DNA from: Bryobacteraceae bacterium
GTDB lineage: Bacteria; Acidobacteriota; Terriglobia; Bryobacterales; Bryobacteraceae
Assembly: GCA_036557345.1 (NCBI GenBank)
Contig: DATBHS010000098.1
Location: forward strand, 8,605-72,604
Length of the DNA: 64,000 nt
Direction: 5' to 3'
Shown here: piece after piece, positions 24,532-60,410 of the stretch
Numbering within the stretch: the stretch's first letter is position 1
Layout: every line of letters starts with the position of its first letter
Program-made: the position numbers and the translations under genes
The notes under the pieces: model-generated
What the model saw: the letters and a program-made list of their open reading frames with translations, nothing else
Databases searched by the model: none
Told to the model about the DNA's origin: nothing

Positions 24532-24894
24532 TCAAGGCCGGTACACGGCATATGATGTGTCCGTCTCCCAAACCCGTACAAACGCGATTGATGCCGGTGC
24601 CACTCCGCTCTTCAGTTCTTCGTAAAAGAACTTTGCGATGTTTTCCGCCGAAGGATTGATCTGGTCGAACGGTTTCAGATCGTTAATGAACTGGTGATCC
24701 AGGTACTCGCTGGTGGCACGCAGCCGTTTCTTCAGCTCCGAAAAGTCAAAGAGCAGCCCGTTCGCATCCAATTCCGGGCCCGCTACTCCTATCTGCACGC
24801 GATAGTTGTGGCCATGCACATTCTCACACTTGCCGTGATAGTTTCGAAGCGCATGCCCTGCAGCGAATGTGTGCTCTACGCAAACCTCAAACAT
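24532..24894 (-). CDS. queD: 6-carboxy-5,6,7,8-tetrahydropterin synthase
   Basis: 120 aa. FAAGHALRNYHGKCENVHGHNYRV is the PTPS/QueD His-triad motif. Confidence 0.85.
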   Translation of the reverse strand: MFEVCVEHTFAAGHALRNYHGKCENVHGHNYRVQIGVAGPELDANGLLFDFSELKKRLRATSEYLDHQFINDLKPFDQINPSAENIAKFFYEELKSGVAPASIAFVRVWETDTSYAVYRP

Positions 24895-26836: not shown

Positions 26837-27074
26837 TCGAAACTGCTCACGGCGGGCCCAAGGAAACTTTGAGTGTAGTACGCGTGAGCAGTGGGGCAGA
26901 AGGTCTTGCCGTCTGCCGCAGGACTTGTTTAGTCCGGCGTGAATCGACTCAACCGGGACTGAGCCGCGACGGCAAGGGAGCGGTCTTTTCGACGCAGACC
27001 GTGAGAACCCCAAAATATGAAATTCTGGAGGGTAAGATAGAACACCGGGCAGACGACACTCAAAGGAGATCGCT

Positions 27075-27602
27075 ATGGCCACTATCCTCGTCAACGGAAT
27101 AAAACGCGAAGTTCAGGCGTCAACTGATACGCCTTTGCTCTACGTCTTGCGAAACGACCTCGAGCTTTCAGGCCCCCAGTTTGGTTGTGGGCTTGCCCAA
27201 TGCGGAGCGTGTTCCGTACTGCTCAACGGCAAGGAGATTCGATCCTGCATTACGCCGCTGTCCGCCGTCGGCGATAAGGAGGTCACGACGCTTGAGGGTC
27301 TTCCGGCGCGATGGGCCAAACAAAAGGGCCTGACTGCGGAACAGGCAGCGAAAACTCTTCATCCGGTCCAGGAGGCGTGGATCGCCGAGCAGACGCCGCA
27401 GTGCGGGTTCTGTCAGAACGGGATGATGATCAAGGCTACAGAGCTGCTGGAGCATATTCCGTCACCTGCCGTCGCGGAGATCAAGGAGGCGTTTACTTCC
27501 GGCGTCTCTCCGCACCTTTGTCGTTGTGGAACCTATACGGCGATCATCCAGGCTGTACAGCGGGCCGCCACTCAAATGGCGAAAGGGGCTAAAGTACTAT
27601 GA
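27075..27602 (+). CDS. (2Fe-2S)-binding small subunit of an aldehyde oxidase/isoquinoline oxidoreductase-type molybdoenzyme
   Basis: 175 aa. GCGLAQCGACSVLLNG and CGFCQNGMM...CRCGTY are the two [2Fe-2S] motifs. Confidence 0.85.
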   Translation: MATILVNGIKREVQASTDTPLLYVLRNDLELSGPQFGCGLAQCGACSVLLNGKEIRSCITPLSAVGDKEVTTLEGLPARWAKQKGLTAEQAAKTLHPVQEAWIAEQTPQCGFCQNGMMIKATELLEHIPSPAVAEIKEAFTSGVSPHLCRCGTYTAIIQAVQRAATQMAKGAKVL

Positions 27603-44763: not shown

Positions 44764-45648
44764 ATGAAGCTGCAAGGAATCTTTCCCGCTCTAACTAGTT
44801 CCTTCGACCATCAAGGCGCTCTTTACAAGGCGAAGGTCTTTCACAATATCGAGAAGCTGAACCAAGTCGCTCTCAGCGGATACGTTGTCTGCGGCTCGAC
44901 GGGCGAAACACCGCTGCTGAGCGTGGCAGAACGCCTGCAGTTAATGGAGTGGGTGCGCGCAGCGGCTGCTGAAGGAAAAACGCTCATCGCCGGCGTAGGC
45001 GCGGAGAGCGTACACGAAACGGTTCATCTCGCAAACTGCGCGGCCGAACTCGGCTATCACGCCGCGCTCGCGCTCACCCCGTTTTACTACCGCAACCAGA
45101 TGCACCGCCCGGACACCCAAGCGCTCTATTTTCGAGCCGTAGCAGATCGTTCCAAGATTCCGGTTCTCATTTACAACATCCCGCAAGTAACCGGCTACGA
45201 TGTGCCCGTCGACGTAGTCGCCGAACTCTCGCATCACCCGAACATCATCGGCATGAAGGACAGCTCGGGCAATCTCGAACGGATGGAGCAAGTATGTCGC
45301 GCGGTTCAGCCGGGCTTTCAGACGCTTTCGGGTTCGGGTCTGAATTTTCCGCAGGCTCTGAAACTGGGCGCAAGTGGCGCGATTCTCGCCATAGCCAACC
45401 CACTTCCCTATGCCTGCGTCACCATCTGGGAAGCGTTCCGGACACGCGAGCAGGAAGCGGTCGAAGACTGGCAGAACCGCATCGTTCCCGCCGGCCGCCT
45501 GATCGCGACGAAGTACGGCATACCGGGCCTTAAATATGCGATGGATCTTAACGGCTATTACGGCGGGCCGCCACGTTTGCCCATGATTCCTCCCTCGTCT
45601 GAAGGGAAAGCCGAACTTGAGGCGGCCTTCGACGGCCTGCGCAGTTAA
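44764..45648 (+). CDS. Dihydrodipicolinate synthase family (DapA-like) lyase
   Basis: MKLQGIFPALTSSF...VVCGSTGETPLLS...IGMKDSSGN has the Schiff-base Lys context. ATG at 44764. Confidence 0.8.
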   Translation: MKLQGIFPALTSSFDHQGALYKAKVFHNIEKLNQVALSGYVVCGSTGETPLLSVAERLQLMEWVRAAAAEGKTLIAGVGAESVHETVHLANCAAELGYHAALALTPFYYRNQMHRPDTQALYFRAVADRSKIPVLIYNIPQVTGYDVPVDVVAELSHHPNIIGMKDSSGNLERMEQVCRAVQPGFQTLSGSGLNFPQALKLGASGAILAIANPLPYACVTIWEAFRTREQEAVEDWQNRIVPAGRLIATKYGIPGLKYAMDLNGYYGGPPRLPMIPPSSEGKAELEAAFDGLRS

Positions 45649-45744
45649 TATACCCGGGCCAGCAGGCGTCTCTGTGCTAGCCTGTTAGCGTTCTCGCTGA
45701 ACACGCTAAGCCCGCGGGTGTGCGGGTCGCTACGACCTTTCGCC

Positions 45745-47217
45745 ATGTCGCTGCAAGTTTTTTTGCAAGCTCAACTGCTTGGTACCGAGGATTTCCTGAT
45801 CTTTCAAACTTCTGGGCTCCAGGAGCAGGCGAAAGAGCTATATGGCCGCTGTGCTTGGCTCACATTGTTCTGTGAAGTACTCCCCCGCGCTCTTTTGGCA
45901 GAACTGAAGCTCTCTCGAATGCTTCTCGGCTCCAGCAGCGCCGAGCAGTTTCTCCTGGTCCTCGCCGAAGAGGAGATCCCGCACGCAAATGCCTTTCTCG
46001 AGCGCGCGGCGAAATCGATTGCGGACCTTTCGCATGGGACATTGCGTTTGGTCTGGGCGAGCACGGAAAACCTGGGCGCCTGGCCGGTCGCCCGAAAACG
46101 GTTGGATGACGCCCTGGATGCCCGAATTTCGACGCCTCTGGCCTCGGGCACTGAGCCTGCGGTTGCGTTTTTGCCGTTTCTCGCGTCCTCTCCGCCTGAC
46201 AGAGATTCTTATTTTGGGGAGTTCGCCGAGAGGTTGGTGTCTGCCCAACGCGTCGGCTGGTCAAGCGATCAGCCCGCGCGCCTGGCCTGGGACGAGGGGC
46301 AGTACACATGGGCGCTGAAGGAGCAGTCCGGTTTCGATGATGACGGCATCTTGTTTCCGCGTTGCCTGGCGCTGGACGAGTCCGGCAAGCACTTCGCTCT
46401 GCCCGAAGATCTGGCGCAGCGAGCGGACGGTGCTCCGAAGTGGGGTATTTTGCGCGGTGACGTGGATCACTTCGATCTGCAGTTGCGCAGGGCGGCGACG
46501 ATCGAGGATCATCTGCACCTTTCAGTCGCCTTTAAGGACTTCTTCGCGGGCGAACTATCGCTCCTTTTCGCCCGGCTTCCTGATCTCTGGCGTAAAGTTA
46601 GTATCCTCTACCGGGGAGGGGACGGTTTCACGGTAGTGGGGGCTTGGGACGGGCTCATCGTTCTCGCCCGCGAGTTGCAGCGGCTGTTCGACAAGTTTAT
46701 AGAGCACAATTTCGAATCGCTGCCCGGCGTGGAGGCGAAGACTTTGAGTGTGGCCCTCTCGATCGCTACCGAGCCAGATATACCGTCCGCGGCGGTGCTG
46801 CAGGAAGCGAGCGCGCTCCTGCGTGCGGCTAAGTCCAGCGAACTCGGCTCCTTTCATCTTTTCGGACGCGCACTGGAATGGAAACGCCTGGATGACGCCG
46901 AGGAGCTCAAAGACAGTCTGATGCGGCTGGTTGCCAGGTTTGGTTATCGTGCCGACTACATACACGATCTGGCCTCGGTATATCGCGAAGCGTTTTCGAC
47001 ACGCCACGGCCGGCGGGGTAAGGCGTTTCGGGTTGATAAACCGTGGCGAACACACATGCGTGTCTCCCGAGTGATTCCGCAGGCACGCAGCAAGGAATCG
47101 AGTAATCTACGGGATGCCGTCATTACGAACCTGGTCGGGAAGCGGACTGCTGGCATGAAGCTGCGCCCGTCGGCGCGGGTAGGTTTGGAGTGGGCGCGCT
47201 TGGCAGCGGGAAGCTGA
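45745..47217 (+). CDS. cas10: Minimal Cas10-like large subunit (Csm1-like; no HD domain, no Zn finger, GGDG motif)
   Basis: About 490 aa. It starts directly with the post-HD Cas10 signature (GTEDFLIF..LYGRCAWL, compare GIQdFIf..LRGRSfyL). Palm motifs are GILRGDVDHFD and ILYRGGDGFTVVGAWD, then SVALSIATEPD...LLRAAK. It is first in a csm2-csm5 operon. Confidence 0.75.
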   Translation: MSLQVFLQAQLLGTEDFLIFQTSGLQEQAKELYGRCAWLTLFCEVLPRALLAELKLSRMLLGSSSAEQFLLVLAEEEIPHANAFLERAAKSIADLSHGTLRLVWASTENLGAWPVARKRLDDALDARISTPLASGTEPAVAFLPFLASSPPDRDSYFGEFAERLVSAQRVGWSSDQPARLAWDEGQYTWALKEQSGFDDDGILFPRCLALDESGKHFALPEDLAQRADGAPKWGILRGDVDHFDLQLRRAATIEDHLHLSVAFKDFFAGELSLLFARLPDLWRKVSILYRGGDGFTVVGAWDGLIVLARELQRLFDKFIEHNFESLPGVEAKTLSVALSIATEPDIPSAAVLQEASALLRAAKSSELGSFHLFGRALEWKRLDDAEELKDSLMRLVARFGYRADYIHDLASVYREAFSTRHGRRGKAFRVDKPWRTHMRVSRVIPQARSKESSNLRDAVITNLVGKRTAGMKLRPSARVGLEWARLAAGS

Positions 47218-47278: not shown

Positions 47279-47809
47279 ATGGCTGAAGTAGAGGAAAAAA
47301 AGACGGAAGAACGCCGCAGTGACAGCCGGCCTCCTCGCGAGAATCGCGGCCCCGGAGGAAAGCCGAACGAGAGAGGGGAGCGTGGTTCGGGTGATCGCGG
47401 GTCCGACCGCGGCCGTGAGCGGGGCGGTCCGGGCGCAGGCCGGCCTGGCGAGCGCCGCGGCGAAGGACCGCCGGAAATCGACCTCGATAAGTTGGTCAGC
47501 GATAGTCTTTACCTGGACAACCAGGCACACGTCGTAGTCAGCCGGATGCGCGACATGGATTCGGGTACGAAGAGCCAGTTACGGCGGCTTTATAATGCCG
47601 TGCGCCGCGCAACGCGAGCTCCAGAAAATGAGCGGCAGCACGAGTTCGTCATGGTACGGGCGCGCCTTGCATACACAATCGCGCGCCATTCTCTGCGCAG
47701 CCTGGATGCACTCGAGCGATTGCTGCTGCAGGTTACCCGGAAGAATGATACCCGCGGATACGAGCGCTTCCGCGATTTATTTGAAGCAATTATTGCTTAC
47801 AACGAATAG
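47279..47809 (+). CDS. csm2: Cas11/Csm2-like small subunit with Arg/Gly-rich N-terminal extension
   Basis: 176 aa. The C-terminal approx 110 aa are helical with KSQLRRLYNAVRRA...RARLAYTIARH. Its position between cas10 and csm3 is the basis for the call. The first approx 66 aa are low complexity. Confidence 0.65.
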   Translation: MAEVEEKKTEERRSDSRPPRENRGPGGKPNERGERGSGDRGSDRGRERGGPGAGRPGERRGEGPPEIDLDKLVSDSLYLDNQAHVVVSRMRDMDSGTKSQLRRLYNAVRRATRAPENERQHEFVMVRARLAYTIARHSLRSLDALERLLLQVTRKNDTRGYERFRDLFEAIIAYNE

Positions 47810-47820
47810 GACATTGAAGC

Positions 47821-48654
47821 ATGAGTTCTCATACTCAAGAAACCGAGCTTACCTTTCTCGGCAAGCTGGTGCTCGAAGGCGAAATCCAATGCCAGACCGG
47901 TTTGCACATCGGCGCGGGTAAGGGCTCACTCGAAATCGGCGGCGCAGACAATCCGGTCGTAAAGGATGCCTTCGGGATTCCCTATATTCCGGGCAGTTCC
48001 TTGCGCGGCCGGCTTCGCTCGCTGCTCGAGCAGGCGCTCGGTCTTGCAGTTCCGAGTGAGTTGGTCTATCTTTCGAAGCGCAAGGGCCAAGAAGTTCGCA
48101 TTCACCAGAGCGATCGCCCCGATGACGAGGTCTGCATTCTCTTCGGGCGTAATCCCGGACGTGTGGAAAAGGTGAACGGCGATGCCATTGAAGCTCCGAC
48201 CGCAACACCCGCGCGTCTGACCGTGTATGATGCGCCTCTTCTTGTTGATAGCATCACAACCCAGATGCGCGAAAATCTGGACGACGAATTGACCGAGGTC
48301 AAGAGTGAAAATGCGGTCGATCGCATCACCTCGCAAGCGAATCCTCGAACCCTCGAGCGTGTGCCAGCCAGCGCACGCTTCCGGTTTCGCATGGTGCTCG
48401 ATGTGCTCTGTGCGGAAGACAAGCCGCTTCTCGCGCGCGTCGCAGAAGGTTTACGCCTGCTCGAAGATGATGCCCTCGGCGGTGGCGGCAGCCGCGGCAG
48501 CGGCCGTGTGAGTTTCACGGGCTTGACGCTCACTTGGCGCAGCAAGGATTATTACGCGAAAGGCACCCCCGAAAGCAACCTGCTCTCGGATGCCGGACTT
48601 CAGGCCTTACAGCAGCTTGCCAGTTCCGACGACTTCGCAGAGAAACTTGCCTAA
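47821..48654 (+). CDS. csm3: Type III RAMP protein Csm3 (Cas7)
   Basis: 277 aa. QTGLHIGAGKGSLEIGGADNPVVKDAFGIPYIPGSSLRGRLRSLLEQ and the G-rich loop LGGGGSRGSGRV. Confidence 0.9.
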   Translation: MSSHTQETELTFLGKLVLEGEIQCQTGLHIGAGKGSLEIGGADNPVVKDAFGIPYIPGSSLRGRLRSLLEQALGLAVPSELVYLSKRKGQEVRIHQSDRPDDEVCILFGRNPGRVEKVNGDAIEAPTATPARLTVYDAPLLVDSITTQMRENLDDELTEVKSENAVDRITSQANPRTLERVPASARFRFRMVLDVLCAEDKPLLARVAEGLRLLEDDALGGGGSRGSGRVSFTGLTLTWRSKDYYAKGTPESNLLSDAGLQALQQLASSDDFAEKLA

Positions 48655-49830
48655 ATGCAGCAGGCGCTTTTGATTCGACTCCGGCCTGCCGGTCCGTGGC
48701 GCTACGGTCCCGGGGATGGAGGCCAGGATCGTGTCGACACGCTGTACCGCAGTGATCGGCTCTACTCAGCGGTTACTGTGGCTATGCGCGACTTAGGCTT
48801 TTTGCAGGACTGGCTCAGCGCGACGGCTAAAGCGCCGCCGTCCATCGCATTCAGTTCCTTATTCCCATTTCAAGGCGACTCTTTATTTGCGATTCCGCCC
48901 GCCACTGCGTGGCCGCCTTTGCCCACGCTGGTGAGCACACCAAGCCCTGTGTTTTTAAGCAAGATCCGCTGGAAAGCTGCGCAGTTCGTTCCCGTCGCGC
49001 TGATTGACTCTTTGCTAACGGGACACTCCATTCTCGCAGATCAATGGCTTCCCGATCCCGAGAGCGGATGCTTGTTGCGGCGTGATCGCCCGAGCTCGAG
49101 CCCTTTCCGCATTACTACGCGGCGGGCTGCTGCCGTCGACCGCCTGGCCCAGAATTCGTTTGAGATCCGCTCGACCGCCTGTGTCGAGTTTGAAGCGGCG
49201 TCCGGCCTGTGGAGTGTTGTGCGTTTTTCCGATGAGTCGACTGAATCCGAGTGGACTGGCCGGATCCAGGCAGCTTTTCGCCTCCTCTCGGATACCGGGT
49301 TCGGCGGCCGGCGCACAAGCGGGTGGGGGCAGACGCAGCCGCCGGAGTTCCAACGGGCGCCATGGCCCGGTCTGCTATTCCCGAAGGTAGCCCAAAGTCT
49401 TGCGCAGCGGAACGGATTCGCGAACGGCAATCATGCCGGCTCGCAGTTTTGGCTGCTATCTCTGTACTCGCCCGCAACAAATGACGAGGTCGATTGGGCG
49501 AGCGGAGATTACCAGTTGACCCTGCGCGCAGGTGGAAACACGAAGCTGTTGCAAATGGTAGCGGAGGGCTCCGTCATGGCAGCCCGTTCGGAACCGGTGG
49601 GCACGATTATGGATATCGCGGCAGACGGGTTTTCTCATCCCGTTTATCGATCGGGAATCGCACTCGCGTTGGAACTGCCTGCTATCGAGCAACAGGGCTT
49701 GGAAGAACCGGTTGAACAGCCTTCGACCGAAGAGGCGGTCGACGCGCAGCCCTGCGAAGAGCCGCCATCATCGAGAACGGAAAGTCCGGGAACGGGAATT
49801 CCATCAGAGGAGCCAGTCGATGATTTTTAA
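48655..49830 (+). CDS. csm4: Type III RAMP protein Csm4 (Cas5)
   Basis: 391 aa. Motifs YRSDRLYSAVTVAM, SSLFPF and DTGFGGRRTSGWG. Starts at the nucleotide after the csm3 stop. Confidence 0.8.
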   Translation: MQQALLIRLRPAGPWRYGPGDGGQDRVDTLYRSDRLYSAVTVAMRDLGFLQDWLSATAKAPPSIAFSSLFPFQGDSLFAIPPATAWPPLPTLVSTPSPVFLSKIRWKAAQFVPVALIDSLLTGHSILADQWLPDPESGCLLRRDRPSSSPFRITTRRAAAVDRLAQNSFEIRSTACVEFEAASGLWSVVRFSDESTESEWTGRIQAAFRLLSDTGFGGRRTSGWGQTQPPEFQRAPWPGLLFPKVAQSLAQRNGFANGNHAGSQFWLLSLYSPATNDEVDWASGDYQLTLRAGGNTKLLQMVAEGSVMAARSEPVGTIMDIAADGFSHPVYRSGIALALELPAIEQQGLEEPVEQPSTEEAVDAQPCEEPPSSRTESPGTGIPSEEPVDDF

Positions 49831-50962
49831 ACTGACTGCGCTCACTCCGCTCCTGGTCGGCGATGGGCGTGAACTCGCACCTATCGATTACATGGTTTGG
49901 AAGGACCAGGTGAATGTCCTCGATCAGGCGCGCATCTTTAAGCTGCTGGCGCGGGGTCCGCGGCTGGACGGGTACCTGGCACAGCTACGCAAGGCCACAA
50001 AACTCGATTTCGCTTCTTGGGGCGGCTTTGCCCAAAACTTCTCGCAGCGGCGCATTCCCTTCGAGGATCCCAGCTCAACCGCAATTTGGAACGCAGCGCC
50101 TTCGGAGTCGCTCTTCATTCAGACTTTCGCGGCTAACCTGAACGGACCGTACCTGCCCGCTTCGGCTCTCAAGGGAGCGCTTCGCAGCGGGCTCATTTTC
50201 ACGCGCTGGTCCGCGGCCACGCTGGAGCGTGCGGCCTCTTCAATGGACGGCGAGCGCGTTGCCAGACGCATCGCCGAAACAGCCGAGGCGAATGCGGGTG
50301 CATCGCAGATGAAGATCGTGAGTATTGCGGACGGCCAGCCGGCGCCCGGCTCATCGTTCAAGGTCTATCTCACACGTGTGGCATCGCTCGATACACGGCA
50401 ACCTGGAAAACCGCAACTGACCTGGAAGGTGGCTGGACGCGGGAGCGTTCTTCCGCAGCGGGTCTCCGACGCAACGCCTATATTTGTGGAAATGGCAGCC
50501 CCCGGTACGACGTTTAGCGGTTCCTGGGAGGAACGGAGCTTCTTTGAAAATCAGGAGCTGTCACGCGCTCTTGGATGGCGCTCTATCCCCGAGCCGCGCA
50601 TGGTAACCGATGCTGCGAATCAATATGCGTCGGCTCAACTGAATGTGCATTCGCAGTTCGCCGATGCTTCCGGACTTGCCAGCCTTCAGAACGGCATTCA
50701 GAGATTGAAAAACGAACTGGACGCGGCACAGTCATCGCCGCTCACCTGCCTTTTGTCGCTCGGTTGGGGAGGTGGGTTCGTTTCGAAAAGCGCCTTCCTC
50801 GACACCAACCTGGACTCCTATCGTAAGCTTCTACGTTCGGTCCCCGCCTTAGGCAGGAGCATCAGGGAAAATGTACCATTTCCCAAAACCCGCCGCGTCA
50901 TTTTCACAGGCGGCCAACCCACCGCCCTTCCGGGGTGGGTCAAGGTCGAGCTTCAAAAGTAG
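49820..50962 (+). CDS. csm5: Type III RAMP protein Csm5 (Cas7 family)
   Basis: ATG at 49820 (MIFKLTALTPLLVGDG) overlaps the csm4 stop by 11 nt. Motifs PYLPASALKGALRS, LSLGWGGGF and FPKTRR. Confidence 0.85.
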   Translation: MIFKLTALTPLLVGDGRELAPIDYMVWKDQVNVLDQARIFKLLARGPRLDGYLAQLRKATKLDFASWGGFAQNFSQRRIPFEDPSSTAIWNAAPSESLFIQTFAANLNGPYLPASALKGALRSGLIFTRWSAATLERAASSMDGERVARRIAETAEANAGASQMKIVSIADGQPAPGSSFKVYLTRVASLDTRQPGKPQLTWKVAGRGSVLPQRVSDATPIFVEMAAPGTTFSGSWEERSFFENQELSRALGWRSIPEPRMVTDAANQYASAQLNVHSQFADASGLASLQNGIQRLKNELDAAQSSPLTCLLSLGWGGGFVSKSAFLDTNLDSYRKLLRSVPALGRSIRENVPFPKTRRVIFTGGQPTALPGWVKVELQK

Positions 50963-51120
50963 CCGTCCTGTAGGTACTATTTTCGGCATTTTCTTGGGTG
51001 AAGTGTAAGGGTTGGCAGTGGAATTGCCGATATTTCAGTATGATGGGAGAGTGCCGGTATCCGCAGGCCCATACGGCTGCTGATCGCCCGTCGTCCTCCG
51101 ATCTGGAGTAGACCTTAACA

Positions 51121-52026
51121 ATGCAGAGCGCGATCTACAATGCGTACTTTGGGTTTTCGGAAAACCCCTTTAATATCAGTCCCGATCCGGGATTTCTGTA
51201 TCGTAGCCCACAGCACGAAGAAGCTCTGGCCAATCTGATCTACGGTGTCCGTGGCCGCAAGGGATTCATCGTACTCAGCGGTGAAGTGGGTACCGGTAAG
51301 ACGACGATGTTGGAGTGTCTGCGGGACTATCTCGATAACCAGCGCATCGAATTTGCCTTCCTTTTCAATTCCCGGCTTACTCCCGAGCAGTTCTTCGACA
51401 TGGTCGCTTATGATTTCGATCTGCAGTGCGATCGAAAATCGAAGACGGACGTCCTGTTCGCTCTGAACGCCCTGCTTCTCCGGCAGGCGGAACGGGGCCG
51501 CACGTCCGTGCTGATTGTGGATGAGGCGCATAACCTCGACTGGGACGTCCTGGAGGAGATTCGTCTCCTCGGCAACTTGGAGAACCGCCAAGGCAAGCTC
51601 CTGCAAATTATTCTCGCCGGGCAGCCGGAACTCGACCGCAAGCTGGACGCACCGAACCTCCGGCAATTGAAGCAGCGGATTGTGCTCCGATGCACGCTGA
51701 ACCCGCTCACGCCGGAAGAGTGCGCGGCGTATGTCGAAAGCCGGCTTGCGCACGCCGGAATGACAAGACAAACGGTGTTTCCGCCGGAAGTGCTCGAGGA
51801 AGTGGCAACCCGCGCGCGGGGCATTCCCCGGCTGATCAATCTGCTCTGCGATAACCTTCTGGTCACCACCTTTGCGATGGAGCAGCGCACCGCAACTCTC
51901 GACATGCTCGATGAAGTGTGCCACGATCTCCGGCTTGAATGGCCCGGCAGCCATCGGGGCCGCGGTCGCCATCGTTACAGCGTGGATGACGAGCTTCCGA
52001 AGACTCCCTACGCTGTCGGGGACTAA
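51121..52026 (+). CDS. ExeA/AAA_22-type AAA+ ATPase (resembles PEP-CTERM-locus secretion ATPase family)
   Basis: 301 aa. FGFSENPFNISPDPGFLYRSPQHEEAL...FIVLSGEVGTGKTTML (Walker A), LIVDEAHNL (Walker B) and ILAGQPEL. Confidence 0.85.
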   Translation: MQSAIYNAYFGFSENPFNISPDPGFLYRSPQHEEALANLIYGVRGRKGFIVLSGEVGTGKTTMLECLRDYLDNQRIEFAFLFNSRLTPEQFFDMVAYDFDLQCDRKSKTDVLFALNALLLRQAERGRTSVLIVDEAHNLDWDVLEEIRLLGNLENRQGKLLQIILAGQPELDRKLDAPNLRQLKQRIVLRCTLNPLTPEECAAYVESRLAHAGMTRQTVFPPEVLEEVATRARGIPRLINLLCDNLLVTTFAMEQRTATLDMLDEVCHDLRLEWPGSHRGRGRHRYSVDDELPKTPYAVGD

Positions 52027-52040
52027 CATTCTCTTAGGGC

Positions 52041-52065
52041 GAGCGTAGCTAAACCGCTAACGCTC
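52041..52065 (+). terminator. Hairpin 15 nt after the ATPase stop
   Basis: GAGCGTAGC-TAAACC-GCT(A)ACGCTC is 9 bp with one bulge, followed by GAAGAATTTCG. The U-tract is weak. Confidence 0.35.
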
Positions 52066-52591
52066 GAAGAATTTCGCGCGCTATAGCGGCAAGAAGCCGT
52101 ATTTCGAGGTTTGACCGGATGATGCAAGTGCTCCAGAAATGCCGCCACTACTCGCGCATTGATTGAGAAGATATTTGTTCTGGATCCAGACGGAAAACAG
52201 GGATAGGAATAGAATTCCGGCTGTCTTCAGCTCACCGCCCTCAAGCTGACGAATGGGGAAGTGATCAGTCTGATTGAGGTGTGGCGGGAGCTTGCTGAGC
52301 CTGATTGCCAAAGGTCCATTCTCAGCGCACTGCTTAGTGGTATATAGAACAGGTCTTGAATCTGAGAAACCGGTCGGGGCTTCAGCAGCGCTAGCGAGAG
52401 CAGGATTCGAGCTTTCTGCGGATTCAGCTCATCGGCAGGGATTTTTCAGCGAGCGTGCCAAGGAACGGACCGGTTACTGCCGCGAGCCTCTTCATAGGTT
52501 ATGTCAGCAAACAAGCTGACAATCTCAACTGTGACGACAAACACCAGCACGGAAATGCTTTAGAGCTATTTGTCTTTGCTTGTTCACGTAA

Positions 52592-52849
52592 TGTTCAGCT
52601 CTGTTCATAGTCAGAATTCGTCAACGAAGTGTGATATCCTTCATACCGCTGGCTGTCATGGCTGCCATTGCAACGACCAAAATTGTGATGCTGCCAAACG
52701 TCGGGTTTTGGGCTGTGGCCCGTGACGCCCGCACGGATTATTTCACGCTGATGGGGCTACTGTTCGTGTTGGCGTCTGGCGCGAGGCCGCTTTCGTTCGA
52801 TTCCATCATCAACTGCACCCTGAGCACGAGCCATACACGTGGAAGATAA
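52592..52849 (+). pseudogene. C-terminal fragment of a DoxX-like membrane protein
   Basis: SFIPLAVMAAIATTKIVMLPNVGFWAVARDARTDYFTLMGLLFVLASGARPLSFD resembles only the last two helices of DoxX-family proteins. The frame is closed by TAA at 52589-52591 and no N-terminal half lies upstream. Confidence 0.45.
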
Positions 52850-53144
52850 AGACCTCTATTCAGGATTGATTCGGCTGCATGTATTGCACCATGCCTGCCA
52901 AGAAGAAGTGTTTGGACTTGACATGATCGAGGAACTTGCGCGCCATGGATATAAGTTGAGCCCTGGAACGATGTACCCCGTTTTGCATGGGCTCGAGAAG
53001 CGCGGCTACCTCAAGTCTGAGGAGTTTCGTTCCGGGAAGATCAGGCGCCGTTTGTACCGTGCCACGCCAGCGGGGCGGAAGGCGCTGAAAGCGGCCAAAC
53101 AGAAGGTCCGCGAATTGTTCGGCGAACTGATCCAAGGCAAATGA
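52839..53144 (+). CDS. PadR family transcriptional regulator
   Basis: 101 aa. LIRLHVLHHACQEEVFGLDMIEELARHGYKLSPGTMYPVLHGLEKRGYL. Confidence 0.9.
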   Translation: MEDKDLYSGLIRLHVLHHACQEEVFGLDMIEELARHGYKLSPGTMYPVLHGLEKRGYLKSEEFRSGKIRRRLYRATPAGRKALKAAKQKVRELFGELIQGK

Positions 53145-54523
53145 CGGCGAATCGGCGGAATTTGTCCCTTCTCGTCCTGTTCAGTCGCACCCTATTCGCC
53201 CAGCAATCAAATCAGACGTTGTTGAATATCGAGCAGGCGGTGAATCAGGCTGACCAGTTTCCTTCCATTGCTGCTGCGCAAGAACAAGTGAACGCTGCAG
53301 CCGCTGGCATCCGTCTCGCGCGAACCAATTACCTTCCTAGTCTGAACGCAATAGGGCAAGTGAATCGCGCGACGCGAAATAACGTGTTCGGGCTCCTTTT
53401 TCCACAGACGGTCATACCGAGCATGTCTGGCCCTGTATTAGGCACCAATGACGGAACCAGCGTGTGGGGTAGCGCTGCTGGTGTTCTTGTATCGTGGGAG
53501 CCCTTTGATTTCGGTCGCAGGCGCGCTTTAGTTCGGTCTGCTCAAGTCACTCAAGACCGGACTCAGCTTTCAGCCGAAAGAGCTCGATTTGAAATTCAGG
53601 CGAGCACTGCTGCCGCGTTCTTGACGCTTTTGGCAAGTGAAGAGACGGTGCGAGTTGCGCAAGCGTCAGTGGACAGGGCGCAGATTGTCGTCAAATCCGT
53701 TAAGGCGCTCGTTGACGCGAAGCTGCGTCCTGGAGCGGACTTGTCTCGGGCCGATATGGAACTCGATGCCGCAATGACACAGTTACTGCAGGCGCAGCAA
53801 TCAAGCGAAGTGGCGAGGACATCAGTTGCCGAGTTTACAGGAACGGACGCTAAGACGTTTGCAGCAGTTCCGGGTCACCTGCTGGAACGATTACCGGAGA
53901 CGACTGGCGAGGATGCGGCCGATCTGTCGAACAATCCTGCAGCCCGGGAACAGGCGGGTGCGATTGCGGAATCTAGATCGAAAGTAGACGTCTTGCAACA
54001 TACCTATCGTCCGACCTTCGAATTGCAGGCAGCAGGATACGGACGTGGGACCGGTGCTCTGACGAACGGGCAAACATTGGGTGGGACCGGCGGCCTTGTT
54101 CCGAATTATTTCAATGTCGGTATCGGGTTTACAGTCAACTTTCCTCTTTTGAGTTTGCCGTCGATTCACGCGCAAGAGGCACAGGCAGCAGCGGTGGAGC
54201 GGTCTGCTACCGCGACCTATAAACAAGTCTTGGCCGAACTCCAGGCCCAATCGAACGCTGCTCAAGCGACGCTGGGTCAGGCTCGTCGCATCGCGGCAGT
54301 AACACCGAAAGAAGTAGTGGACGCCCGAACTAGTTTCGCGCAGGCGAATGCTCAGTATCGGGCAGGACTCACGACCATTGTTGCCTTAGCCGAAGCGCAG
54401 AGAATGTTAGCTCAGGCAGAGATTGATGACTCGCTCGCCAAACTTGCGGTCTGGCGGGCCTGGTTGCAGCTCCAGACCGCCGAGGGAGATATCTCTTCTT
54501 TTCTGAAGGAAGCCAGCAGATAG
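53141..54523 (+). CDS. TolC-family outer membrane efflux protein
   Basis: 460 aa. Duplicated OEP repeat architecture. Overlaps the padR stop by 4 nt. Confidence 0.85.
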   Translation: MTANRRNLSLLVLFSRTLFAQQSNQTLLNIEQAVNQADQFPSIAAAQEQVNAAAAGIRLARTNYLPSLNAIGQVNRATRNNVFGLLFPQTVIPSMSGPVLGTNDGTSVWGSAAGVLVSWEPFDFGRRRALVRSAQVTQDRTQLSAERARFEIQASTAAAFLTLLASEETVRVAQASVDRAQIVVKSVKALVDAKLRPGADLSRADMELDAAMTQLLQAQQSSEVARTSVAEFTGTDAKTFAAVPGHLLERLPETTGEDAADLSNNPAAREQAGAIAESRSKVDVLQHTYRPTFELQAAGYGRGTGALTNGQTLGGTGGLVPNYFNVGIGFTVNFPLLSLPSIHAQEAQAAAVERSATATYKQVLAELQAQSNAAQATLGQARRIAAVTPKEVVDARTSFAQANAQYRAGLTTIVALAEAQRMLAQAEIDDSLAKLAVWRAWLQLQTAEGDISSFLKEASR

Positions 54524-54526
54524 AAC

Positions 54527-57500
54527 ATGCGATTGGTTTTAGCGGCACTGAGCAGACCTCTGACGGTCATTGTCTTCATGATTGCCATTGCACTCTGCGC
54601 CGTACTGGCCGTTGAGCGCATGCAGGTCGATATCTTTCCGACGGTAGGGGAGAAAGCGATCTACGTTGCCCAGCCATATAGCGGCATGGACCCCGCACAA
54701 ATGGAAGGATTCCTGAACTATTACTTCGAGTATCACTTCCTCTACATCAACGGTATTCAATACATCGAGAGCCGGAATATCCAAGGGGCTTCGCTGATGA
54801 AGCTCGTTTTTCAGCCGGACACAGATATGGCGGATGCAATGGCGCAAACGGTGGGCTATGTTAACCGCGCGCGCTCATTCATGCCGCCTGGCACAGTGCC
54901 ACCATTCATCACGCGTTTCGATGCAGGGAGTGTTCCTGTCGGACAACTCACTTTCCTGGGTCGAAATCGCAGCCAGGCTGAGATTCAGAATCTGGCGCTG
55001 AATCGCGTGCGACCGGTCTTTGCTACTTTGCCCGGAGTCTCCGCGCCCCCTCCGTTTGGTGGCAACCAGAGGTCCATCGTCGTAACGCTTGATCCGAACA
55101 AACTGAGAGAGTATGGCGTTTCGCCCGAGGAAGCAACCGCCGCCGTAAATAAGGCGAGTGTGGTTATGCCATCTGGCAATATCCGGATCGGCAATTTCAA
55201 TTTGTTCGCGACGAGTAACAGCATTCTCGGCGCTAACCTTGACGCGCTCATGGGCACTCCGGTTCGAACGATCGAAGGCCCAACTGTGTACTTGCGGGAC
55301 ATCGGAACGGTTGCTGATGCGACCGATATTCTCACCGCCTACGCGCACGTAAATGGAAAGCGCACCGTGTACATCCCGGTCACTAAGCGTGCCAGTGCGT
55401 CCACGTTGGCAGTGATTAACGAAATCAAGGCGGCGCTTCCCGATCTAAAGAAGCTGTTGCCGGAGGACATGGATATTCGCTTTGACTTTGATCAGTCGCC
55501 GTACGTTACGAATTCGTTGCGAGGCCTCCTGTTCGAGGCAGCGCTGGGAGCGGTCTTGACCGGCGTGATGGTGCTCTTGTTCTTGCGTGACTGGCGCAGC
55601 GCCATCATCGTTATCCTGAACATTCCGTTTGCCATTCTCAGTTCCGTGGTTTTGCTTTGGGCTGCGAGGCAGACGATCAACATTATGACTTTGGGAGGAC
55701 TGGCCCTAGCTGTCGGCGTCCTCGTCGACGAGTCGACCGTCGAGATTGAGAATTTACACTCTCATATGGCCTCTGGCGTTCCGCGGGCCAGAGCCGTTGT
55801 GGAAGCCACGCGGCTTACGGTTGTTCCGCGCTTCCTATCCATGCTGTGTATTCTGGCAGTCTTTCTGCCGTCGTTCTTCCTCGCTGGAGTCGGCCGTCAG
55901 CTTTTCGTGCCTCTATCACTTGCGGTGGCATTCGCGATGATCGCTTCGTTTCTGTTATCAAGCAGCCTCGTTCCCGTCTTATCCACCTGGATCATGAAAG
56001 AGAAGCGGCAAGGCGAAGAGCACGTCGGAGTGTTTGGAAGATTGCATGCAGGTTATTCGCGATATCTCAAATCCGCCTTGCGCTTTCGTTGGCCCCTGAC
56101 GCTTATCTATCTTGGCGCTTCTCTCGTGTTCCTCTGGGTATTCCTTCCCCGTATGGGAACGGAAATTTTTCCTGAAGTTGCAGCCCCGCTACTTCAAATC
56201 CGTTTGCGGGCTCCTACAGGCACTCGTATTGAGCAAACCGAACCCCGGGTTCTAAAGGCAATCGACGTGATCACGCAGACGGTCGGGCCTGATAACGTGA
56301 CGATCACAAGCGATTATGTCGGTACACAGCCGGCCAGCTATCCCGTCGATCTGATCTACCTTTTCACCGCCGGCCCCCAAGAGGCGGTAATCCGGGTCGG
56401 ATTGAAAGAAAACGTGAAGGGCGATGAAGCGCTTCGGGAACATATTCGATCGGCTCTGCGGCAAAGTGTCCCCGATCTTCAGATCTCGTTCGAAGCCGGC
56501 GACATCATCAGCCAAGTGATGAGTTTCGGGTCACCCACTCCGGTCAATATCGCCGTGCAAGGGCCGGCTCTCGAAGATGATTACACCTTCGCGAAGAAGA
56601 TCGAGAGTGAACTCGCGAAGTTGACGTTCTTGCGGGACCTTCAGTTTGCACAGGCGATGGACTACCCGACCGCGCATGCCGAGATCGATCGCGACCGCGC
56701 CGGCCAGTTTGGGTTGACTATGTCGAATATCGCGCAATCGTACGTGACTGCGACAGGGTCAAGCCGCTTTACATCGCCGAACTATTGGCGTGATCCGAGG
56801 TCAGGCAACGCGTTTCAGATCCAGGTGCAATACCCACCGGATCGGATGCAGTCATTACAGCAGATGCAGTCGATTCCACTCATGCTCCCGGGACATAGCC
56901 AGCCTTACTTGAGCGATATCGCGACGATTACTACGCCGAAAGTTCCAGGTGAGATTGATCGTTACAACGGTCAGCGAGTCATTGCACTAACGGCCAACCT
57001 GCATGAAGTCCCGCTTGGGAAAGCTCTCACTCCGATTCAGCAAGCGATTCAGCGAGCGGGCACGCCTCCGCGCGGGGTCAGCGTGCACTTGCATGGCGAG
57101 GCTCCCGGGTTGGAGGAAACGATTCGGGGTTTGCGTATAGGCCTTCTGCTTGCCGTTGTCGTTATCTTTCTTTTGTTGAGTGCCAATTTTCAATCATTTC
57201 GGCTCTCATTGGCAGTGATCCTAACAACGCCCGCCGTGCCGTGCGGAGTGTTGATTATACTGTGGCTCACCGGAACCACCCTTAACGTGCAATCTTTTAT
57301 CGGGGCCATTATGGCGATTGGAATCGCTGTCGCGAATTCGATTCTGCTGATCTCTTTCGCCGAGCGCCACCGATTAGAACAGAAGAGCTCGTCTACGGAT
57401 GCGGCGCACCACGGTGCTAGTTCTCGCCTCAGGGCAATATTGATGACCGCTGCCGCCATGATCTGCGGAATGCTTCCAATGGCGCTTGGCCTGAGCGAGG

Positions 57501-57682
57501 GTGGGAATCAAACGGCTCCGCTGAGTCGAGCGGTGATCGGGGGGTTATTGCTTTCCACATTCGCCACGCTCACCGTTCTGCCCGCAATCTATTCGATTCT
57601 TCAGCAGAAAGCCGCTGTCACTTCCGCATCCCTGAATCCAGATGATCCATCGAGCCGATACTATGGACCACAGCATTCGTAA
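54527..57682 (+). CDS. Efflux RND transporter permease subunit
   Basis: 1051 aa with 12 TM helices and two large periplasmic loops. AcrB/CzcA pattern (LGGLALAVGVLVDESTVEIEN). Confidence 0.9.
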   Translation: MRLVLAALSRPLTVIVFMIAIALCAVLAVERMQVDIFPTVGEKAIYVAQPYSGMDPAQMEGFLNYYFEYHFLYINGIQYIESRNIQGASLMKLVFQPDTDMADAMAQTVGYVNRARSFMPPGTVPPFITRFDAGSVPVGQLTFLGRNRSQAEIQNLALNRVRPVFATLPGVSAPPPFGGNQRSIVVTLDPNKLREYGVSPEEATAAVNKASVVMPSGNIRIGNFNLFATSNSILGANLDALMGTPVRTIEGPTVYLRDIGTVADATDILTAYAHVNGKRTVYIPVTKRASASTLAVINEIKAALPDLKKLLPEDMDIRFDFDQSPYVTNSLRGLLFEAALGAVLTGVMVLLFLRDWRSAIIVILNIPFAILSSVVLLWAARQTINIMTLGGLALAVGVLVDESTVEIENLHSHMASGVPRARAVVEATRLTVVPRFLSMLCILAVFLPSFFLAGVGRQLFVPLSLAVAFAMIASFLLSSSLVPVLSTWIMKEKRQGEEHVGVFGRLHAGYSRYLKSALRFRWPLTLIYLGASLVFLWVFLPRMGTEIFPEVAAPLLQIRLRAPTGTRIEQTEPRVLKAIDVITQTVGPDNVTITSDYVGTQPASYPVDLIYLFTAGPQEAVIRVGLKENVKGDEALREHIRSALRQSVPDLQISFEAGDIISQVMSFGSPTPVNIAVQGPALEDDYTFAKKIESELAKLTFLRDLQFAQAMDYPTAHAEIDRDRAGQFGLTMSNIAQSYVTATGSSRFTSPNYWRDPRSGNAFQIQVQYPPDRMQSLQQMQSIPLMLPGHSQPYLSDIATITTPKVPGEIDRYNGQRVIALTANLHEVPLGKALTPIQQAIQRAGTPPRGVSVHLHGEAPGLEETIRGLRIGLLLAVVVIFLLLSANFQSFRLSLAVILTTPAVPCGVLIILWLTGTTLNVQSFIGAIMAIGIAVANSILLISFAERHRLEQKSSSTDAAHHGASSRLRAILMTAAAMICGMLPMALGLSEGGNQTAPLSRAVIGGLLLSTFATLTVLPAIYSILQQKAAVTSASLNPDDPSSRYYGPQHS

Positions 57683-58763
57683 TCTGATTTCTGTTTTCGT
57701 CTTGCTGGTCAGTGCGCAAGCATTTGAGTCAGCGCAGACAATAAAACTCGCAAGAGTGGCATCGAAGCGGATTGTGCGCACGACGGAGCTGCGCGGTGAG
57801 TTCTATCCATTTCTCAGCGTCGAGTTGCATGCGAAGGTATCCGGATATGTCGATAAAGTACTGGTCGATCGCGGAACCGTAGTCAGGCAAGGAGAGTTGG
57901 TAGTTCAACTCAGCGCTCCAGAACTCGAAGCCCATATCGTGCAGGCGCGGGCACAGGTAACTTCGGCCAGGTCGGATGAAACGCAGGCCGAAGCACAGTT
58001 GTCTGCATCGCAAAGCAATTACGAGAAGCTCCAGGAAGCCGCAAAGACACCCGGTGCCGTTGCTGAAAACGATCTCATCCAGGCGAAACAGCAGACAGAT
58101 GCTGCGCAAGCGGTCGTCCGATCTCGCCAAAAAACGGTCGAATCACTCAAGGCCAGCTTAAAATCTCAACAGGATCTGGCCGCCTACCTTCGTGTAACCG
58201 CGCCCTTCGATGGGGTGATCACCACGCGCTACGTCCATCCGGGAGCGCTCGTAGGACCGGGTTCAGACGTCCCGCTCTTGCAACTTGATCAAATCTCGCA
58301 TTTGCGACTCGCCGTTGCGGTACCTGAGGCAGACGTCGCCGGTATCGAAAAGGGGTTGACAGTGGACTTCAAGGTGCCGGCACACCCGGAGCGCGCCTTT
58401 TCCGGTGTGATCGCAAGGCCAGCGCGTGCGCTGGACATGAAGACGCGTACCATGCCGGTGGAACTCGACGTTCGCAATCAGGATGGGCTGCTTGCTCCTG
58501 GTATGTATCCATCAGTGCTGTGGCCCGTCCAGAGTTCCCGAGCTGCTTTACTCGTACCGCCAACTAGTATTGTGACCACCACGGAGCGGGTCTTCGTCAT
58601 CCGCGACAACAATGGTCGTGCTCAGTGGGTAAACGTTCGTAAAGGACCGGCGGTCGGTAATTTCGTCGAAGTTCAGGGCGATCTGAAACCCGGCGATGAA
58701 ATAGTCGAGCATGCAACCGACGAGATCCGTGAGGGCGCCGTACTTAAAAGCACGAAGTCATAG
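57663..58763 (+). CDS. Efflux RND periplasmic adaptor (MFP) subunit
   Basis: ATG at 57663 overlaps the RND gene end. Has lipoyl/hairpin/beta-barrel motifs (VSGYVDKVLVDRGTVVRQGELVVQLSAPEL ... VTAPFDGVITTRYVHPGALV). Confidence 0.85.
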   Translation: MDHSIRNLISVFVLLVSAQAFESAQTIKLARVASKRIVRTTELRGEFYPFLSVELHAKVSGYVDKVLVDRGTVVRQGELVVQLSAPELEAHIVQARAQVTSARSDETQAEAQLSASQSNYEKLQEAAKTPGAVAENDLIQAKQQTDAAQAVVRSRQKTVESLKASLKSQQDLAAYLRVTAPFDGVITTRYVHPGALVGPGSDVPLLQLDQISHLRLAVAVPEADVAGIEKGLTVDFKVPAHPERAFSGVIARPARALDMKTRTMPVELDVRNQDGLLAPGMYPSVLWPVQSSRAALLVPPTSIVTTTERVFVIRDNNGRAQWVNVRKGPAVGNFVEVQGDLKPGDEIVEHATDEIREGAVLKSTKS

Positions 58764-58771
58764 GCGACAAT

Positions 58772-60280
58772 ATGCGGACATCCACAGACCTATCAAAACG
58801 CACTTTCCTGAAAACAATGGTGGGCGGCGCTGCCGGGCTACTTGCAGGAATTCCAACCAGCCCCGCGCAAATGTTGTCGATGAAATCCGCCTCAGAAGGT
58901 GAGCAGAACAGCGGGACGGCCAACTATACACTACACATTGCTGCTACACCGATCGAGATTGCTCCGAAGAAGATCATTTCAGCGGTAACGTACAACGGAC
59001 AGTTTCCGGGTCCCTTGCTGCGCTTTAAAGAAGATCAGCAAGTGACAATCGACGTTTTCAATGGCACCGACACTCCCGAGCAACTACACTGGCACGGGCA
59101 GTTAGTGCCAACTTCTGTGGACGGCGCTGCCGAAGAAGGTACGCCATTCATTCCCGCTCACGGAAAGCGACGCCTGGTTTTTACGCCTCGTCCAGCGGGT
59201 TTCCGCTGCTATCACACACACGACCGTGCTGGGGCAAACCTAGCGGCGGGGCAATACAGCGGACAAGTAGGGCCAGTGTATATAGAGCCGAAGCACGAGC
59301 CCGGGAGGTACGACCGCGAAGTCTTCCTTGTTCTGAAAGAATTTGAGCCCTCCTTCAGCCAGGGTGGCGATATGGCGCAGGATTTCCTGACACCTGCGAC
59401 GACGATCCTGGAACTGAAGGACCAGGGAGAGGCTGCTATGAAGGCATCGCTCGCAAAAGGCACGCCGCATGGCTATGAGGTTGGATACGACTCCTTTACA
59501 ATCAACGGCCGCAAACTGCACCACGGTCAACCGATAAAAGTGAAGCAGGGCGAGCGTGTGCTCTTCCACATCCTGAACGGAAGCGCGACCGAGATCCGAA
59601 GCCTTGGCTTGCCGGGACATACGTTCGAAATAGTCAGCATGGACGGCAATCCTGTTCCAACTGCGAAGCGAGTTCCTGTCTTATGGATTGGCACGGCAGA
59701 ACGTATTTCGGCGATCGTCGAGATGAACCATCCCGGTGTCTGGATTATGGGCGACATGGCCGACGACGACCGCAATCACGGAATGGGCATTGTTGTGGAG
59801 TATGCTCATCGCGCTGGCAAGCCAGTATGGCTTCCACCGCCGCACGGGAAGTGGAATTACACGTGGTTCGGTTCTGCGAAGCCTGCACAAGAGCCCGATG
59901 AAACCTTCGACATGACGTTCACCAAGGTCAATGCGGCCGATCAGGGGTTTAACCGATGGGAAATCAACGGTGTTGCGTATCCGAATACGATGGCTCCGGT
60001 TGCCGCAACTTTCCAAGTCCGAGAAGGCAAACGGTACCGACTACGCATGCGTAACGCGAGCGACGACATCCACCCTATCCATCTACACCGACACGTCTTC
60101 GAACTGACCAGAGTCGCTGGCCAGGCCACCTCCGGGATCATGAAGGATGTTGTGATGGTGGGCGGGTATCAGTCGGTCGAGGTTGATTTCGTTGCCAACA
60201 ACCCAGGCCTCACTCTGTTTCACTGCCATCAGCAGTTGCATATGGACTACGGCTTCATGACACTGTTCAACTATATGTAA
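58772..60280 (+). CDS. Multicopper oxidase (Tat-exported)
   Basis: 502 aa. Tat-like KRTFLKTMVGGAAGLLAG. Copper motifs HWHG, CYHTHD, HPIHLHRH and HCHQQLHMDYGFM. Confidence 0.85.
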   Translation: MRTSTDLSKRTFLKTMVGGAAGLLAGIPTSPAQMLSMKSASEGEQNSGTANYTLHIAATPIEIAPKKIISAVTYNGQFPGPLLRFKEDQQVTIDVFNGTDTPEQLHWHGQLVPTSVDGAAEEGTPFIPAHGKRRLVFTPRPAGFRCYHTHDRAGANLAAGQYSGQVGPVYIEPKHEPGRYDREVFLVLKEFEPSFSQGGDMAQDFLTPATTILELKDQGEAAMKASLAKGTPHGYEVGYDSFTINGRKLHHGQPIKVKQGERVLFHILNGSATEIRSLGLPGHTFEIVSMDGNPVPTAKRVPVLWIGTAERISAIVEMNHPGVWIMGDMADDDRNHGMGIVVEYAHRAGKPVWLPPPHGKWNYTWFGSAKPAQEPDETFDMTFTKVNAADQGFNRWEINGVAYPNTMAPVAATFQVREGKRYRLRMRNASDDIHPIHLHRHVFELTRVAGQATSGIMKDVVMVGGYQSVEVDFVANNPGLTLFHCHQQLHMDYGFMTLFNYM

Positions 60281-60410
60281 CTGCCTTATGTCACTAATTG
60301 TTGTGCCATGAGCTTCTACGCTGTACGGCTTTTGTACGGCGCGAATCTCTCGGCCGACAAGGACCAGGTTCTACGTGAGGCGTTCTGAGCGCTCAAGCCT
60401 CTCTCCGACC

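Follow-up and report, generated by a model that had tools for sequence, protein, structure and literature searches.

The gene at positions 45745..47217 (+ strand) of a 64-kb stretch of Bryobacteraceae bacterium DNA (64,000 nt; GenBank assembly GCA_036557345.1, contig DATBHS010000098.1; the whole stretch is called the window) encodes a 490-aa reduced Cas10/Csm1 that has neither an HD nuclease domain nor a zinc finger; it is termed cas10s here. Type III CRISPR-Cas systems have Cas10 as their signature protein, which normally delivers two of their three outputs, cleavage of single-stranded DNA (ssDNA) and cyclic-oligoadenylate (cOA) signalling. Profile searches, phmmer, hhalign, an AlphaFold2 (AF2) model, Foldseek and ratios of non-synonymous to synonymous substitution (dN/dS) together make it reasonably probable that cas10s is a genuine, functional and family-wide reduced Cas10, acting as the large subunit of a type III-A-derived, RNase-only, chromosomal Csm complex. 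The place of the gene in a csm operon that lacks CRISPR and cas6 and is conserved across Acidobacteriota is of greater interest than the domain loss and had no part in the original prediction. Given the absence of a CRISPR array and the housekeeping-like conservation in soil Acidobacteria, this operon may no longer serve ordinary adaptive immunity.

Domain architecture and family of the reduced Cas10

The cas10s frame can be opened from a GTG at 45718 or an ATG at 45745 and stops at 47217 on the + strand. By sequence comparison the ATG is assigned as the true start, since all full-length homologues open with MS(L/V/F)Q at residue 1. Upstream lies a complete dapA-like gene of the dihydrodipicolinate-synthase family (positions 2–285 of 289 of the Pfam DHDPS profile are covered), whose stop at 45648 leaves a spacer of 96 nt before the ATG. 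Across 93 loci an ATG at the aligned first residue opens the Cas10 frame, and the in-frame stretches 5′ of this ATG are short or of low complexity and contain no HD motifs. An HD exon upstream of the gene was found in none of about 96 loci. The original prediction, made from the letters of the window, that the protein has no HD domain and that no H-D segment lies upstream is thus borne out.

The start of the protein corresponds to residue ~254–270 of canonical Csm1. With phmmer against the sequences of the PDB, residues 15–86 of cas10s align to Csm1 254–340 and residues 234–423 to Csm1 518–696; the first of these alignments reproduces the proposed match of LLGTEDFLIF....LYGRCAWLTLF to the motif of canonical Cas10. 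With a family profile built from 98 members, hhalign matched residues 6–488 to residues 270–795 of a canonical Csm1 of 800 aa, with a probability of 99.7 %. This template has LLHDIGK as its N-terminal HD motif, and its zinc finger reads CEVC...CSLC. The HD region of Csm1 (~250–270 aa) has no counterpart in the family by either phmmer or hhalign, and the finger sits in an insertion present only in the template. The size deficit of 267 aa relative to Csm1 corresponds to the HD region plus ~46 aa of the inter-palm region.

Likewise, cas10s contains no CxxC, and among 98 homologues neither a Cys nor a His pair is conserved, so that the predicted lack of the finger is upheld. The count of cysteines needs correction: three, not four, follow the ATG (residues 36, 43 and 207), and the fourth falls in the 9-codon extension from the GTG. 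A further claim, that the C-terminal helical domain is short, does not stand; this domain is of full length and aligns to the last residues of Csm1 in both phmmer and hhalign.

Four segments can be delimited on the + strand. Palm1 (aa 1–130, 45745..46134) opens with its first beta strand (MSLQVFLQAQLLGTEDFL) and includes LYGRCAWLTLF. An inter-palm linker (aa 131–230, 46135..46434) is a remnant of the zinc finger/domain B without metal ligands. Palm2 (aa 231–378, 46435..46878) contains GDVD at 46456–46467 and GGDG at 46615–46626, and is matched by the Pfam family Cas10-Cmr2_palm2 (PF22335; 1.5e-15, residues 242–374 of the 499-aa open reading frame (ORF) with the GTG start). The D4 helical domain (aa 379–490, 46879..47214) aligns by hhalign as far as residue 795 of the 800 in Csm1 and has five helices in the model.

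The AF2 model, computed from the 98-sequence alignment, has a mean predicted local distance difference test (pLDDT) score of 86.7 and a predicted template modelling (pTM) score of 0.87, and it shows two palm folds. Palm1 has a beta-alpha-beta-beta-alpha-beta secondary structure at a pLDDT of ~90, and within the linker the pLDDT drops to 62–77 (aa 131–160). In a Foldseek search of the PDB the best 50 matches were all type III-A Cas10/Csm1 chains (for example 9g9a, 7uzw, 6ifn and 6o73), with E values down to 1e-17; the matches are whole-length, with query-normalised template modelling scores of 0.73–0.77 and 14–17 % identity. Taken together, the cas10s product is supported as a Cas10 of the III-A (Csm1) lineage from which both the HD nuclease domain and the zinc finger of treble-clef type have been lost.

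Existing profiles represent this protein poorly. It scores 123.7 bits against the Csm1 model TIGR02578, below the cut-off of 170, with the C-terminal half and a short N-terminal stretch aligned. The PADLOC Cas10 matches are to generic CAS-III large-subunit profiles, reach only the Palm2 part and score at most 69 bits, which marks the family as one without an existing profile. No end-to-end profile for the short Cas10 family was found in NCBIfam or PADLOC, and present-day annotation pipelines therefore label its members ‘hypothetical’ or just ‘second palm domain-containing’.

The reduced form is shared by a very large family. A word-indexed search returned 1,967 related clusters, the best 120 of which are 487–518 aa long apart from two partial sequences (432 and 392 aa), and a further search, started from a member with 41 % identity, added 2,269 clusters of 470–520 aa. 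In an exhaustive HMMER scan of 1.84 billion representatives the full-length members were 450–506 aa long and all aligned from query residue 1; canonical Csm1 proteins of 737–800 aa appeared there only at E values of ~1e-13 to 1e-15, with residues ~202–484 matched. The source names of the homologues are all from Acidobacteriota (Bryobacteraceae, Acidobacteriaceae, Terriglobia). The check for homologues with the same truncation hence yields thousands, of the same length and with the same MS.Q start. The dN/dS of cas10 is 0.07–0.08 (Nei-Gojobori, against three relatives), and values across all six genes of the module, the csm operon and the ATPase that follows it, are 0.02–0.12; all genes of the module are under strong purifying selection. 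At one locus (L007:10318-10320) the tblastn match to Cas10 breaks at residue 93/94 with a one-base offset, possibly a frameshift or a sequencing error in a metagenome-assembled genome.

The csm operon and its chromosomal setting

The gene order is that of canonical III-A, with cas10s at the head of csm2-csm3-csm4-csm5, all on the + strand. Csm2 (Cas11; 47279..47809, 176 aa) scores 41 bits against NCBIfam TIGR01870 (cut-off 30.6) and also exceeds the cut-off of PF03750. Csm3 (Cas7; 47821..48654, 277 aa) reaches 199 bits with TIGR02582 (cut-off 90), Csm4 (Cas5; 48655..49830, 391 aa, also matched by PF17953) 107.5 bits with TIGR01903 (cut-off 55), and Csm5 (49820..50962, 380 aa) 64 bits with TIGR01899 (cut-off 38.3). 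The Csm5 start, MIFKL, is placed with the help of gene calls in L010–L012 and gives an 11-nt overlap with the end of csm4. The Csm3 loop IGGADNPVV (47935–47961) aligns with the catalytic loop of solved Csm3 structures in the PDB, which places the catalytic Asp43 at 47947–47949; the motif GGADNPV with this Asp is invariant in 17 loci.

Csm2 is composed of a folded C-terminal domain and a disordered N-terminal tail of 66 aa (47279–47476) that is RG-rich and acidic. In the window and L001–L020 the tail is 51–86 aa long, rich in Arg/Gly and Asp/Glu, and RG/RGG-like. Its start, MAEVEEKKTEERR..NRPPRENR, and the GPPE junction are kept in 12/12 loci examined. A comparable RG-rich tail is not known from any other Cas11. 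Csm4 ends in an acidic/Pro-rich C-terminal tail (49660–49830 in the window; L001:14030-14340), which is present in most loci, variable and 0–150 aa long. The tail is composed of 13-aa tandem repeats in L001 and is missing in L013, L017 and L018. Its tip is acidic-hydrophobic (PVDDF, PDDEF, DTDDV, QSDEL and similar) and resembles SSB-type interaction tips.

The cyclase site is altered in the window, a point on which the original prediction, though supported, was incomplete. The Palm2 motif reads YRGGDGF (46609–46629), GGDG replacing GGDD, and GDVD is intact. This GGDG is limited to the window clade (the window and L001–L004). GGDDF is retained in 62/98 and 84/96 relatives in two samples, and scattered sublineages read GGEDF, GGAEF, GGQDF, GGNDF, GGDNF, EGDGF, GVAGF or SASGF. 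From these sequences, GGDD is probably still under selection in most of the family, yet has decayed repeatedly. By analogy with mutagenesis of GGDEF proteins and of Cas10, the GGDG enzyme is likely to be impaired. A tie between loss of GGDD and loss of the downstream ATPase was considered and rejected: it is true of one subclade (L015, L019), but other ATPase-less loci retain GGDD.

No CRISPR array was found in the window, nor in the 1.03 Mb covered by 96 independent loci (TRF, a repeat search and an 11-mer spacing scan). Every seed match proved to be either a tandem repeat in coding sequence or a 48-nt tandem repeat without spacers. The latter, at L091:7908-8150, consists of six perfect GC-rich copies 3′ of the ATPase and is not a CRISPR array. 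Pfam tables for 14 loci and for 30 further ORFs of the window contained no cas6, cas1, cas2 or Csm6-type CARF effector, and Rfam returned nothing meaningful for a guide or other noncoding RNA gene in the locus. The neighbours are metabolic and housekeeping genes, such as those for ATP synthase subunits, LpxD, acetyl-CoA synthetase and efflux pumps. Additionally, no members of the short Cas10 family were found in plasmid or phage collections.

The subunits differ widely in conservation. Identity to the window proteins is 40–80 % for Cas10, 41–81 % for Csm4 and 43–83 % for Csm5, compared with 71–92 % for Csm3 and 84–95 % for the C-terminal domain of Csm2. Between the window and clade 2, one of the two deep clades of the family (the other is clade 1), Cas10 is 40–47 %, Csm3 71–77 % and the Csm2 domain 84–90 % identical. 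Cas11 is usually the fastest-evolving subunit, and its conservation in this family is therefore an anomaly. The divergence of the module was set beside that of other chromosomal genes. In L002, dapA (90 %), ATP synthase subunit a (90 %) and LpxD (93 %) can be compared with Cas10 (79 %) and Csm3 (89 %); the corresponding values are 84 % for thiolase, 80 % for Cas10 and 92 % for Csm3 in L001, and 74 %, 65 % and 86 % in L009. In the window, as in L001 and L009, the thiolase gene is found 3′ of the module. This residual synteny, with a divergence matching that of housekeeping genes, points to a csm module inherited vertically as part of the chromosome, not one residing in a mobile defence island.

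Downstream of csm5 is a gene for an ExeA/GspA-like AAA+ ATPase (51121..52026, +, 301 aa) with intact Walker A (GEVGTGKT) and Walker B (IVDEAH) motifs. It matches PF13401 (AAA_22, 2.4e-27) and PHROG 296 (MuB-like, 4e-24), and scores 286 bits with TIGR03015 (XrtA/PEP-CTERM-associated), below the cut-off of 324.5. No exosortase or secretion genes were seen adjoining it, its context being the csm operon; in the source records it is called ‘general secretion pathway protein A’ or ‘ExeA family’. The ATPase is 80–92 % identical within clade 1, with a dN/dS of 0.03. Its AF2 model is poor (pLDDT 56), and a profile search against PDB sequences gave only P-loop noise.

The ATPase adjoins the operon in 12/12 clade-1 loci and 9/26 distant-clade loci, including the most divergent (L020); the overall figure is 21/40 loci with enough downstream sequence. 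The notion of a universal sixth subunit, hinted at by the first 13 loci, was given up with this wider sample. In the ATPase-less loci the downstream genes are heterogeneous, unrelated and housekeeping-like, and no alternative accessory gene is evident. The linkage of csm and ATPase is probably ancestral, with the ATPase dispensable or relocatable, and a functional tie between the ATPase and the complex is plausible in the window clade. At a clade-2 locus, csm5 and the ATPase are separated by a gene (L017:15237-16073) whose product has PG_binding_1 and GH19 domains. Classical ExeA couples an AAA domain to a peptidoglycan-binding domain, and an ExeA-type ancestry of the ATPase would be indicated by this arrangement.

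Candidate functions and relation to known type III systems

In the proposed mechanism, Cas10s and Csm4 would cap the 5′ end of a guide RNA, and the guide would be paired with complementary RNA by a filament of Csm3, with Csm2 along it and Csm5 as its cap. The paired target RNA would then be cut by Csm3 Asp43. Without HD the complex would be unable to degrade ssDNA; that HD loss should remove this activity, as the original prediction held, follows soundly from established Cas10 biochemistry (PMC6013697). Synthesis of oligoadenylate is probably weakened or lost through the GGDG of the window lineage, and nearby genes encode no sensor of the signal. Absence of HD, the GGDG and the lack of a nearby sensor would together leave RNA binding and cleavage as the output, possibly coupled to the adjacent ExeA-like AAA+ ATPase in the window clade. 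The guide would be encoded elsewhere, either in CRISPR arrays acting in trans or as a non-CRISPR RNA.

Several points weigh against the reading of an RNase-only Csm complex. Retention of GGDD in most relatives suggests that cyclase activity is probably still selected in the family, and a lone Asp-to-Gly change may leave the window enzyme partly active. Sensors of cOA could sit elsewhere in the genome. The RNA-guided action is drawn from homology, and no guide RNA was found. The ATPase is missing in 19/40 loci and is not an obligate partner. ‘Bryobacteraceae’ labels occur in both deep clades, so there may have been some paralogy or within-phylum transfer. Additionally, a missing adjacent array is common in III-B, III-C and III-F (PMC12669027), and an array-less locus alone is therefore no argument against defence.

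As to biological role, it is put forward tentatively that the csm operon is a domesticated, vertically inherited and CRISPR-independent ribonucleoprotein of Acidobacteriota, in which host-encoded, non-CRISPR RNA guides would direct the binding or cutting of particular cellular RNAs in regulation or housekeeping. The RG-rich tail of Cas11 and the acidic one of Csm4, together with the ATPase of many lineages, would then be lineage-specific additions. If true, a type III system would here have been exapted for the first time to a role outside defence. Exaptation of CRISPR-Cas systems is an open field according to the 2025 classification (PMC12669027).

The operon could instead be an ordinary III-A immunity module that receives CRISPR RNAs (crRNAs) and Cas6 from other loci and signals by cOA to unlinked CARF/SAVED effectors, so that HD loss would drop just one of three outputs. 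The canonical gene order, the intact catalytic Asp of Csm3 and the retention of GGDD and GDVD by most family members fit this explanation, and many type III loci without arrays or adaptation genes of their own are thought to use co-resident ones (PMC6013697, PMC12669027). It is rather doubtful, if only slightly less probable than domestication. No array was seen in any of the 96 loci, and neither cas6 nor a Csm6-type CARF effector in the 14 domain-called loci or the window. Conservation far exceeds that usual for defence genes, with Cas11 at 84–95 % where Cas10 is at 40–47 %. The module diverges like the flanking housekeeping genes and keeps residual synteny, its loci lie among metabolic genes outside defence islands and mobile elements, and GGDD has decayed independently in several sublineages.

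A mislabelled Cas10 of a known HD-less subtype, either III-D or an HD-less III-B Cmr2, is very improbable. All five subunits best match III-A, with Csm2–Csm5 passing NCBIfam equivalog cut-offs, every top structural match is Csm1, and Csx10, Csx19 and Cmr genes are all absent. The Cas10 of III-D is also much larger than this 490-aa protein. The two share the lack of HD, which is usual in III-D Cas10 (PMC6013697), but the partners here are of the Csm2–5 families, unlike the Csx10/Csx19/multi-Cas7 set of III-D. The generic CAS-III large-subunit matches in PADLOC would also suit such a label; however, with Palm2 alone reached, at 69 bits or less, no existing profile fits the family. Finally, a truncation artefact or pseudogene, in which HD was lost by frameshift, misassembly or a mistaken choice of start, or in which the gene is a relic in decay, would account for a protein ~270 aa shorter than canonical Csm1 and a sub-threshold TIGR02578 score, but is refuted by the complete dapA only 96 nt away, the HD-free upstream frames, the thousands of homologues sharing length and ATG start despite unrelated upstream genes, the dN/dS of 0.07 with saturated dS, and the compact and confident AF2 model.

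Compared with canonical III-A Csm1 (S. epidermidis, S. thermophilus, L. lactis, E. italicus, T. onnurineus), the Palm1-Palm2-D4 core is shared, as are the operon order csm1-csm2-csm3-csm4-csm5 and the catalytic Asp of Csm3. Unlike in canonical III-A, Csm1 here has no HD and no treble-clef finger and, in the window lineage, a GGDG; there is no cas6, csm6, cas1/2 or array nearby, and Cas11 has an RG-rich tail. In III-G and III-H an apparently active HD is kept and the catalytic Asp of Cas7 is lost, and they are predicted to be DNA cleavers; for III-G, which lacks an array, the use of crRNAs in trans has been proposed (PMC12669027). The present system is the opposite, with HD lost and the Cas7 Asp kept, although the theme of reductive evolution is shared. 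It is also unlike III-I, which has no N-terminal palm domain, and III-A2, which has no Cas11 and uses NucC (PMC12669027). A type I-E variant without Cas3 and linked to a STAND NTPase (PMC6452270) is likewise a nuclease-less effector beside a P-loop NTPase for which a non-canonical role is proposed; it belongs to a different CRISPR type, and here the NTPase is an ExeA-like AAA_22 protein and the Cas7 RNase is retained.

Terms related to Acidobacteria are absent from the 2025 classification and those of its supplements that were searched (PMC12669027), and none of the variants reported there is from this group. No published description of the present variant was found in a literature search or in that classification; the 2015 and 2020 classifications lay outside the search, and a brief mention in them is possible. 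The family is very large and abundant in soil, and it has dropped the DNase and, in some lineages, the cyclase site, with the Cas7 RNase kept and Cas7/Cas11 conserved at housekeeping level. As a natural minimal Cas10 of ~490 aa, it helps to define what Csm scaffolding needs from the large subunit. The complex is also a candidate for a type III effector with no need of a CRISPR array of its own, perhaps not even of CRISPR.

Conserved noncoding elements and other neighbours

An all-versus-all comparison of flanks and spacers revealed no conserved elements other than the cas10 leader and the csm5-ATPase spacer. Upstream of cas10s, an extended -10-like box, TGTGCTAGCCT (45673..45683, +; consensus TGTGyTAGyCT), is a putative promoter and is kept in clade-1 loci. 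The 5′ leader that follows (45685..45744, +) was folded with RNAalifold on 10 and on 27 clade-1 leaders. Hairpin 1 spans 45685–45709 and hairpin 2 spans 45711–45726, the latter with compensatory changes in 4 pairs. A motif CGCyNNGACC (45728–45737), conserved in clade 1, follows, and its GAC(C) is able to pair with GTCG just past the cas10 ATG. Box and leader are conserved, one copy per locus, in 27 clade-1 loci with unrelated upstream genes; the element is not conserved in clade 2. As judged from these features, the leader may be autoregulatory. Its hairpin and 3′ tail were also considered as a solo CRISPR repeat, a possibility that found no support, the element being single-copy in each locus.

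The spacer between csm5 and the ATPase contains a second element (51013..51046, +), in which a sigma-54-like TGGCAG-N5-TTGCC is combined with a core GCCGAT-N8-GTATGATGG. The sigma-54-like part occurs in the window clade, and distant clade-1 loci share only the core, GCCGAT-N8-GTATGMTGG. This comparison suggests that the ATPase is driven by its own regulated promoter.

Beyond the ATPase, an 8-kb block (window 52027–60410) precedes the thiolase gene and encodes PadR, an outer-membrane factor, an RND pump and a HlyD-like protein, in addition to ORFs of 63 aa and 502 aa. Only ~0.5 kb lies between the ATPase and the thiolase gene in L001 (L001:16522-17043), and the PadR-efflux block therefore looks like an insertion in the window lineage. 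A DinG/XPD-like helicase gene (DEAD and Helicase_C_2 domains; window 24887–27094, - strand) is located at a distance of 20 kb from the csm operon. Type IV CRISPR systems are accompanied by helicases of the DinG kind; this one is probably a chromosomal DinG unrelated to the csm operon.

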